NCBI GenBank assembly: GCA_030017615.1
Contig: JASEIG010000001.1
Location: 22,518 to 86,517 of the forward strand
Origin: Patescibacteria group bacterium
GTDB lineage: Bacteria; Patescibacteriota; Minisyncoccia; UBA6257; UBA9933
Direction: 5' to 3'
Length of the DNA: 64,000 nucleotides
A program made the translations under genes and the position numbers. Below the pieces are notes generated by a model that had not been told where the DNA came from, made no database searches, and saw only the letters and a program-made list of their open reading frames with translations. This document shows positions 62,604 to 63,457 of this stretch, piece by piece. The stretch's first letter is position 1. The number at the start of each line of letters is the position of its first letter.

Positions 62604-63341
62604 TTAAATTCCTTTAAAAACTTTTATTATTAAATCGAGTTCTCCTTCCAGAATTTTTTCAATATTGTGCCATTTTTTTCCAATTCTGTGGTCGGTGATG
62701 CGGTCATCAGGGAAGTTGTAGGTTCTAATTTTTTCACTGCGGTCGCCGGTGCCGATGATATCTTTTCGGACGGCGCCGGTTTTGGCCGTTTCTTCTTGTA
62801 TTTTGGTGTCGTAAAGCTTTGCGCGAAGCATACTCATAGCTGTTTCGCGATTAGCGAACTGCGAGCGGCCGGCTTGGGAAGCGACTACTATACCGGTGGG
62901 CTTATGCAAAATTCTGACAGCGGTTTCAACTTTATTCACATTTTGTCCTCCGGGTCCGGATGACCTAAAAAAAGACACTTCTATTTCAGAAGGATTAATT
63001 TGCACTTCTTCGGCTTTGACTTCGGGCATAATTACAACGGAAACAGTGGAAGTATGCACACGGCCGGATTTTTCGGTCTTGGGAACTCTTTGGATACGAT
63101 GAACGCCGGACTCTTGTTTTAAATCTTCATATACATTTTCACCCTGAATTTCGGCAATAAATGTTTTGTATCCTTCCAGCGTGTCGGCGTTAAAGTCGGC
63201 GATTTCAAATTTCCATCCTCGTTTGGCGGCATATTTTTGATACATTCTGGCAAGTTCGCCGGCAAAAATAGCGGCCTCGTTTCCGCCCGCCCCCGCCCTT
63301 ATCTCTAAAATTATTTTATTTATATTATTTTGCGTATTCAT
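62604..63341 (-). CDS. prfA: Peptide chain release factor 1-like protein lacking N-terminal domain 1 (PxT = PKT, GGQ present)
   Basis: [24 protein letters not shown] (PCRF domain), [14 protein letters not shown] (PxT tripeptide, RF1-type), [17 protein letters not shown] (GGQ). Only 245 aa versus ~360 for canonical RF1. Confidence 0.7.
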
Positions 63342-63457
63342 AAATTTCTAAAATTTTAAATAATGCAGGGCTATGGCGGACAGGTCCGCGTCGCCGCGAA
63401 TTTCTAAGATTATTTTTTGCATATTTCAATACTAAATTACTTAAAAACTAAAGGCAA

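Follow-up and report, generated by a model that had tools for sequence, protein, structure and literature searches.

The window analysed here is a 64-kb stretch (64,000 nucleotides, nt) of contig JASEIG010000001.1, from the assembly GCA_030017615.1 of a Patescibacteria group bacterium, and this report concerns the release factor gene that lies close to its end. The gene, prfA (62604..63341, minus strand), encodes a release factor 1 (RF1) of 245 residues in which Pfam, NCBIfam and PDB alignments find domains 2-4 only. Domain 1, which it lacks, belongs to RF1 and RF2 as textbooks describe them; it is the portion of class-I release factors that contacts RF3 and the stalk region. Just upstream on the same strand is a mini-ORF (open reading frame) of 24 codons (63348..63422) that repeats the first motif of the gene, and beyond it rpmE (63504..63776, minus strand; Ribosomal_L31, 1.9e-28), which encodes ribosomal protein L31 and is the conserved upstream neighbour of prfA. 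The spacer between prfA and rpmE is 162 nt long, and a terminator-like hairpin lies between rpmE and the mini-ORF (63456..63497, minus strand), with a 17-pair stem that contains only 3 G-C pairs and is followed by a T run. Downstream of prfA, in convergent orientation, are the genes for an SLT_2-domain protein and for ribosomal protein L25. In what follows WIN denotes the window locus, L numbers denote related loci and P numbers denote database proteins.

Identity and architecture of the release factor

The window protein carries the RF1-type PxT 'anticodon' tripeptide as PKT at residues 87-89 (63075..63083, minus strand), followed by GRVHTS, in a region where the alignment to solved RF1 structures covers QRVPxTE..GRxHTS; the catalytic GGQ motif is at residues 131-133 (62943..62951, minus strand). 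Its Pfam match to PCRF takes in profile positions 96-194 of 194 only, and the match to RF-1 (PF00472) runs over positions 3-116 of 116 (2.3e-40). Against the NCBIfam RF1 models it scores 370.5 bits for NF001859 (cut-off 400) and 361.8 bits for TIGR00019 (cut-off 423.25). The alignments to these prfA models begin at model position 101 or 108, with a match that spans positions 101-336 of 347, and the shortfall below both curated equivalog cut-offs fits a missing N-terminal third. The RF2 (prfB) model gives 245 bits (cut-off 370), the PrfH model TIGR03072 86.7 bits (cut-off 166.65) and the ArfB model NF006718 54.4 bits (cut-off 100), the last with a match limited to residues 111-145. Ungapped alignment to PDB entries equates residues 10-240 of the query with residues 111-342 of E. 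coli RF1, and gives 267 bits with residues 120-355 of 1ZBT, in which the PxT region of the query is aligned to QRVPVTESQGRVHTS. Such ungapped alignments to solved RF1 structures (E 1e-78, over domains 2-4) already fix the predicted fold.

As in canonical RF1 (PrfA; TIGR00019 / NF001859), domains 2, 3 and 4 align end to end, the PxT and GGQ motifs and the decoding residues GG.E, Q..P.T and H-T are present, and the gene lies downstream of rpmE; unlike canonical RF1, the window protein has no N-terminal helical domain 1 of about 100-110 residues, and in the short family to which it belongs the tripeptide is almost invariably PKT. Identity between the window RF1 and the full-length RF1 genes of comparison loci is about 55%, and all sequence features required for reading UAA and UAG and for hydrolysis are conserved. 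Judged by descent and motifs, the window gene is an RF1, in a truncated variant made of domains 2-4 only. An earlier note on this DNA, made from the letters alone, had described a release factor of 245 residues that starts at the PCRF core, is without domain 1 and carries PKT and GGQ, and had proposed its alignment to the RF1, RF2 and PrfH families; the description holds, and the alignments place the domain boundaries where that note had put them.

Loss of domain 1 in a clade of Patescibacteria

The best 120 database homologues of the window RF1 are all from Patescibacteria, with Wolfe-, Colwell-, Lipton- and Jorgensenbacteria among the named sources. They are 224-289 residues long (median 242) and have a median of 7 residues ahead of the E[IV]RAGxGG motif; PKT is present in 114 of them and GGQ in all 120. 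The closest relatives of every short RF1 are other short forms. In many related loci an in-frame stop stands 3-30 nt ahead of the ATG. Of 36 short-form loci, 22 have the L31 gene upstream of prfA in the same orientation, and in 16 of these its end falls -1 to 166 nt from the prfA start; because L31 ends so close ahead of the gene, a domain-1 coding segment of about 330 nt cannot fit between them.

When 166 loci are grouped by the number of residues ahead of the motif, 39 have 0-29, six have 40-59, 34 have 70-99 and 87 have at least 100; Parcubacteria-type genomes supply the reduced length classes, and other phyla the full-length one. The sequences suggest a stepwise erosion of RF1 domain 1 within bacteria of the candidate phyla radiation (CPR). 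On the same kind of evidence, a large Patescibacteria (Parcubacteria-type) clade has lost domain 1 as a fixed trait, the end point of this erosion, and the loss is not peculiar to the window genome.

Two sets of RF1 genes of other lengths were noted in the course of these comparisons. Loci L013, L045 and L063, which are labelled Nomurabacteria, encode intermediate RF1s of 267-292 residues with a short, low-complexity N-terminus, and about 34 loci (L040, L044, L049 and others, from Kaiserbacteria, Paceibacterota and other groups) encode RF1s of 312-348 residues with a domain 1 that is about 30 residues shorter.

Two other accounts of the missing domain have to be weighed against this one. The presence of an in-frame mini-ORF just upstream, with a single stop between it and the gene, might suggest that an indel or a recent truncation had removed domain 1 in the window genome only, and the earlier note had allowed for a corrected sequence with an in-frame extension encoding domain 1. 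Reading through the TAG, however, would lengthen the protein by only 27 residues, a duplicate of its N-terminus; a TGA follows beyond the mini-ORF, and no more than 162 nt are available up to rpmE. Moreover, more than 100 homologues from independent assemblies are equally short with their motifs conserved, and rpmE abuts the start in many loci. The upstream stops, the spacer and the short homologues rule out an assembly or sequencing error or a recent truncation in one genome, and we give such an artefact or pseudogene practically no credence. Very unlikely, too, is a specialised paralogue, that is, a rescue factor of the PrfH or ArfB kind in a genome that encodes a full-length RF1 elsewhere. 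PrfH, ArfB and ICT1 are relatives of the class-I release factors, and PrfH likewise has no domain 1, while ArfB is reduced to the GGQ domain. ArfB has no codon-reading domain, however, whereas the window protein keeps the full RF1 decoding apparatus, with PKT and the RF1 decoding residues intact; PrfH is distinguished by an altered codon-recognition motif and by a two-gene operon with a partner gene (PMC1586002). The model scores also speak for RF1, at 370 bits against 245 for prfB, 87 for PrfH (cut-off 167) and 54 for ArfB (cut-off 100). The gene has the housekeeping rpmE-prfA synteny, and no RtcB-type partner gene was found among its immediate neighbours (L31, the SLT_2 protein and L25), among ten further window ORFs or in related loci. 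When nine RF1s, full-length or intermediate, were used as tblastn queries against the 64-kb window, neither a domain-1 remnant nor a second release factor gene came up, no two release factor genes were found in one locus among the related loci examined, and the nearest relatives of the short forms are, as described above, all short.

Full-text literature searches found no published description of a domain-1-less RF1 in CPR bacteria or Patescibacteria. What is new is a natural, clade-wide RF1 without domain 1; the proteins themselves are already in public databases under generic names, and a 100% identical NCBI protein, encoded on an 87-kb contig, is called 'PCRF domain-containing protein [Patescibacteria group bacterium]'. 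The leader structure attached to the short prfA is partly unexplained, and may be more novel than the truncation.

A probably displaced 5' end of prfA

The mini-ORF (63348..63422, minus strand) encodes MQKIILEIRGDADLSAIALHYLKF and ends in TAG. It is in frame with prfA, at an ATG-to-ATG distance of 81 nt, and the gap between its TAG and the prfA ATG is 6 nt (AAATTT), where the earlier note had given 14 nt. The gene copy of the duplicated core is 12 codons long (AAAATAATTTTAGAGATAAGG GCGGGGGCGGGCGGA; 63282..63317, minus strand). Similar nucleotides in the two had been pointed out before, and the two copies do share 21 of 26 nt, at a spacing of 99 nt. From the window alone the case is modest, since local alignment of the copies scores 27 against 19.1+/-2.7 for shuffled sequences, the best of which reach 32. 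What decides the matter is comparison, since homologous upstream copies occur in six related loci, with z values of up to 15. Of the origins that the earlier note had suggested for the mini-ORF, partial duplication of the prfA 5' end is thus borne out by homologous structures in relatives.

In each of the seven loci the older start and first codons are separated from the working start by 50-100 nt. The upstream copy reads MQDQNINKIILPRTKAKRWHGTADNFIQKNE followed by a stop in L001, MSISATTNKIILEIQAGAGRLRNTSASLAPYLTNF followed by a stop in L166, and begins with MDKVILEIRAGTGRLLASLSP in L171; L164 and L165 have partial copies of the prfA 5' end, and the copy in L004 has no ATG. Nucleotide identity over prfA is 69-77% in the locus pairs compared by blastn, except for the pair L166/L168, at 94%. 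The upstream copy is absent from L002/L003, L167-L170, L172 and every more distant short-RF1 locus examined. The copies have a common junction directly after the AGAG codons, GGC/C(GC)CTCC (the stroke marks the junction), of which the window carries a mutated version, GAC/CTGTCC. Because they have this one junction in common, we read the upstream copies as having a single origin. Their polarity is indicated by L166 and L168, which are 94% identical over 2.7 kb, yet L166 has an extra block of 112 nt; the 5' untranslated region ahead of its upstream copy matches that of the undisrupted gene in L172. This comparison places the upstream copy at the ancestral start and makes the working start the second copy.

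The structure is not confined to the loci compared here. Database entry P0128 is clearly the window mini-ORF with AGAG intact and the same tail, and at least seven further small ORFs of this kind are present in the protein database; P0121-P0124, P0126 and P0127 share the AGAG/R junction. A scan of 1 Mb of locus DNA for other genes with an upstream duplicate of their N-terminus returned prfA cases only, plus two unrelated weak matches.

Some 5' fragments of short RF1 genes in the database have different break points (P0125/P0133, P0131 and P0132/P0138/P0139/P0141). These breaks lie after GDL (..AGDLVSG, 56 contigs), after about 30 codons, or, in several, at a frameshift after AGAGG[DNE]; they represent either several independent 5' duplications or recurrent frameshift errors. 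In the window itself an AT-rich, nearly palindromic motif of 13 nt (minus strand, AATTTTAGAAATT) occurs as three direct copies, in the gene (63300-63312), before its ATG (63343-63355) and in the mini-ORF (63399-63411), and the middle one may represent a third repeat unit of very short length.

The palindromic insert

In L165 and L166 an exact 13-nt GC-rich palindrome, GGCGAGCCTCGCC, with CCGCC ahead of it, lies between the two copies. L004 and L171 have the palindrome and CCGCC in closely similar form, which brings the palindrome to four of the seven loci; the window retains only the edge of the palindromic insert. The small ORFs read the palindrome in different frames (ASLAP, GEPRS, RASL), and it is thus conserved as nucleotides and not as peptide. 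That it represents decayed GDLAR codons of the upstream copy was considered and dropped, the identical 13-mer being present in an RNase HII gene and near the end of an L25 gene.

The RNase HII gene is that of L172 (5032-5190, plus strand), in which the N-terminal motif is encoded twice, as MEY-IIGIDEVGR-AATKRRASPKSY-VIGIDEVGRGPLAGPV. The two copies have five third-codon-position differences, and the 35-nt insert between them carries the same GGCGAGCCTCGCC as the prfA leaders, in frame and with no stop. Database protein P0182 (58 residues, from a 6-kb contig; MKGTKEMDSRNRCSWACPARRRASPYIIGIDEVGRGALAGPV) has the palindromic insert (RRASP) just ahead of IGIDEVGRG (..ARRRASPYIIGIDEVGRG); it looks like a second RNase HII case, and a frame-shifted earlier copy may also be present in it. 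A search for RNase HII relatives with the same insert found mostly contig-end fragments.

Two more occurrences of the palindrome were noted, an exact one at L095:4596-4608 (minus strand), close to the 3' end of a gene that resembles L25 (tail ..AAEGEPRQGREKKEK, then the stop), and one with a single mismatch at L170:1287-1299, inside the limits of a predicted Trp_repressor-family gene (1247-1654, minus strand); neither the L095 nor the L170 palindrome has an evident flanking duplication. In the prfA leader of L171 (1010-1100), GC-rich hairpins precede seven consecutive T (..GCGGGTGCCCCGGCTTTTTTTGA), an arrangement that might act as a terminator or attenuator.

Small palindromic selfish inserts inside coding genes of AT-rich reduced genomes are familiar from the Rickettsia palindromic elements and the mitochondrial GC clusters. 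The arrangement described here resembles them in that GGCGAGCCTCGCC recurs in or at the ends of unrelated genes (the prfA leader, RNase HII and the L25 tail) of small AT-rich genomes, and in that the palindrome in RNase HII is read in frame. It differs in that the prfA and RNase HII inserts are flanked by duplicated adjacent codons, 9-20 in number and with mostly synonymous differences, and in that only a handful of copies are seen; to our knowledge such flanking codon duplication has not been described for either the Rickettsia elements or the GC clusters. The sequences point to a small palindromic insertion that arrived together with a duplication of adjacent codons, and raise the question of what kind of small palindromic insert accompanies two unrelated genes.

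Taking the gene and its leader together, we consider it probable that the window encodes an ordinary domain-1-less RF1, and that an old insertion and duplication displaced the older 5' end of prfA, which survives as the mini-ORF. An old insertion of about 100-130 nt would have cut the older start and first codons off from the rest of the gene. It would have consisted of a short GC-rich insert and a second copy of the start codon and the first 15-20 codons or so, and this second copy would be the present start. The structure, with its one junction, is found in at least seven related genomes, and others would since have lost it; the relic of the window appears to have begun to decay, AGAG having become GDAD and most of the palindrome having been deleted. 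The duplication is old, polymorphic and linked to the small palindromic insert. Because the ancestral start region has been kept, the mini-ORF is probably still translated, and it is most likely a relic of the insertion and duplication that is still translated but has no established role.

Evolution and folding of the leader

Over the 11-codon core, Nei-Gojobori pN/pS (non-synonymous over synonymous differences) is 0.16 among the upstream copies (0.10 without WIN) and 0.11 among the genes; between each upstream copy and its own gene it is 0.18, with pS near saturation. A hand parsimony count of the core gives 17 synonymous and 6 non-synonymous changes where 25% synonymous would be expected (binomial P ~1e-6), examples of synonymous differences being Arg CGC against AGG/AGA and Leu TTA against CTT. 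Beyond the junction there is no peptide conservation among the upstream copies, and the cores of the window and L001 are already decaying. The upstream cores most resemble functional 5' ends that lack the insert, the upstream copy of L166 matching L168, and that of L165 matching L170, at 33 of 36 nt each.

RNAduplex finds a leader segment (63351..63395, minus strand), the remnant of the insert within the mini-ORF, to be complementary to prfA codons ~10-25, and RNAduplex and folding predict its pairing with the prfA 5' coding segment at +29..+73 (63269..63313, minus strand), with the start codon in the enclosed loop. The duplex between the window leader and the gene is predicted at -41 kcal/mol against -23+/-4 for shuffled leaders (z -4.5), and folding of the 186-nt window region gives a minimum free energy of -52.6 kcal/mol, which none of 200 dinucleotide shuffles reached (z -2.67). 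Pairing of the leader with the first ~70 nt of the gene reaches -40 to -43 kcal/mol in five of the seven loci (z -2.8 to -4.5); six of the seven fall between -36 and -43 kcal/mol, against -10 to -30 in 13 loci without the duplication. Leader and gene match perfectly over 10 nt in both L165 and L004, a single compensatory A-U/G-C pair distinguishing the two loci, and the perfect 12-nt stem of L001 encloses the ATG in its loop. Measured from the prfA ATG, the stop of the leader ORF falls at -9, +5, +11 and -7 in WIN, L001, L165 and L166, four of the five leader ORFs listed; the stop lies 43 nt upstream in L164 and ~33 nt upstream in L171. It is TAG in WIN and L001, with an in-frame TAG in L004, and TAA in L164, L165, L166 and L171.

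Several of these observations weigh against the view of the mini-ORF as a relic without a role. The core of the upstream copies evolves like coding sequence, which does not fit a purely neutral relic, and neither does the predicted complementarity between leader and gene, which goes beyond chance in five of the seven loci and is not seen in loci without the duplication. A relic also leaves the origin of the insert, and the mainly synonymous divergence of the two copies, not explained. The likeness of the upstream cores to 5' ends without the insert fits repeated recombination with undisrupted alleles, a selection-free way of keeping the core coding-like.

A cis-regulatory leader is the alternative that such observations favour, and we regard it as possible although unlikely. 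Ribosomes would start at the ancestral start, stop beside the prfA ATG and open the leader:gene helix that buries the start, so that RF1 synthesis would be coupled to translation of the leader, and a leader ending in UAG may be coupled also to the supply of RF1. In favour of such a leader are the retention of the ATG in six of the seven upstream copies, the placing of the stop close to the prfA ATG in four of the five listed leader ORFs, the conservation of the core peptide with synonymous variation (pN/pS 0.10-0.16), the duplex energies in six of the seven loci with z of -2.8 to -4.5 in five, the perfect complementarity of 10-12 nt in L165, L004 and L001 with its compensatory pair, and the occurrence of at least seven more such small ORFs in the protein database. 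The TAG stops of WIN and L001 and the in-frame TAG of L004 may be added, given that TAG, the sole RF1-specific stop, is rare in the window (it ends 3 of 55 ORFs, with TAA at 37 and TGA at 15). The leader is, however, missing from close relatives (L168, 94% identical to L166, and L167, L169, L170, L172 and L002) and from all distant short-RF1 genomes, and a start codon is lacking in that of L004; there is variation in tails, lengths, frames and stop codons, with TAA in four loci. The pairing of G-rich codons with a C-rich insert could be a by-product of the insertion, and the conservation of the core could stem from the recombination mentioned above. As for RF1 sensing through a TAG-ended leader, it was rejected: TAG in three of the seven is unremarkable, and not significant, against a random-sequence expectation of ~0.26, and a ribosome waiting 6-9 nt ahead of the ATG would cover the start, so that low RF1 would lower RF1 synthesis, which is the wrong sign of feedback. 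The known precedent is the autoregulatory leader of prfB (RF2), a short upstream frame that ends in the RF2-specific UGA and is followed by a +1 frameshift. The prfA leader resembles it as an ORF of ~25 codons at the start of a release factor gene, which in the window ends in a stop, TAG, specific to the factor encoded downstream; it differs in having no frameshift site, a main ORF that begins at an ATG of its own, TAA as the stop in four relatives and a geometry that would give positive, not negative, feedback.

Still less probable, to the point of being scarcely credible, is ribosome hopping of the kind seen in phage T4 gene 60, here from the last Gly codon of the upstream copy to the matching Gly codon of the gene copy. 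On this view the upstream copy would contribute to a functional RF1, and its coding-like state would find an explanation. A hop would also account for the end of upstream conservation exactly at GGC, which is matched by GGC/GGT in the gene copy of L164, L165, L166 and L171, and for an insert that is GC-rich and structured; the RNase HII case, with no second start codon and with matching CGG codons, could be read in the same way. The gap to be bypassed, however, is 99-129 nt, far above the roughly 50 nt of T4 gene 60; the take-off codon is not followed by a stop, an ATG and N-terminus of its own are conserved in the gene copy, and in the window the take-off codon is GAC, which has no match, so that a hop cannot work there. 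Combining these thoughts, one might propose an undescribed class of GC-rich palindromic insertions in CPR genomes which splits the 5' ends of genes (prfA, RNase HII) and supplies a synonymous second copy of their codons, the leader ORF and helix being kept by selection to control or permit RF1 synthesis, through coupling or, more remotely, hopping; this we also hold to be improbable. We therefore retain the displaced older 5' end as the probable explanation of the mini-ORF, and with it the question of why a displaced gene fragment should stay coding-like in many lineages.

Other features of the window

The window has a GC content of 35% and contains housekeeping genes for Pth, HisRS, signal peptidase, YchF, a class-II aldolase, a histidine kinase, L25 and L31. 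There are no tRNA genes in the 64 kb, and no Rfam family reaches its gathering score anywhere in the window, the prfA leader included. A Shine-Dalgarno-like motif precedes only 11 of the 55 ORFs, and neither prfA nor the mini-ORF has one. Six consecutive ORFs at 24995-31876 (plus strand) have strong GGAGG-type Shine-Dalgarno motifs, in contrast to most other window ORFs, which have none, and this block may be horizontally acquired or highly expressed. Just upstream of rpmE, and pointing away from it toward the window end, is a perfect sigma-70 consensus (63881-63908, plus strand; TTGACA, 16 nt, TATAAT; 12/12). Among relatives the region between rpmE and prfA varies, and may contain greA or genes for hemerythrin, a NUDIX protein or a HepT/NTase pair. 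Upstream of the Liptonbacteria prfA, at L004:1631-2812 (plus strand), is a gene for a protein of 393 residues made of repeats of ~24 residues (..AKQDLSICDKIQDQ.RKD.CY..).

Probable mode of termination with a reduced release factor

The window gene would serve as the ordinary RF1 of the organism, reading UAA and UAG through PKT and releasing the peptide through GGQ. TGA ends 15 of the 55 window ORFs, and RF2 activity must therefore exist somewhere in the genome. According to the account in PMC1586002, which cites Mora et al. (2003), domain 1 is the least conserved release factor domain and is dispensable for codon recognition and hydrolysis. A truncated E. coli RF1 is there described as functional both in vitro and in vivo: it can support growth, recognizes stop codons and acts in vitro as a peptidyl-tRNA hydrolase, but it does not stimulate nucleotide exchange on RF3, for which domain 1 is required. 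The same source describes prfC as non-essential and as not found in small genomes (PMC1586002). The engineered protein and the window RF1 have the same architecture of domains 2-4, the former as a laboratory construct and the latter as the natural, fixed housekeeping state of a whole clade.

Going by the conservation of the motifs and by the truncated E. coli RF1, domains 2-4 would be enough for stop-codon recognition and hydrolysis. What would be lost is the stimulation of nucleotide exchange on RF3, and the factor would presumably leave the ribosome spontaneously, without RF3. By analogy, we infer that RF1 termination in this clade may proceed without RF3-assisted recycling.

If so, these bacteria would bear out in nature the laboratory finding that the minimal termination module consists of domains 2-4, in the form of a housekeeping RF1 without domain 1 in a large and abundant bacterial clade, with related lineages in which the protein is of intermediate length. 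Since the short RF1s fall below curated cut-offs and carry generic names, marker-gene and completeness pipelines may score RF1 as missing from such genomes. Their sequences are a ready set for asking how release factors recycle without RF3 on the reduced CPR ribosome.

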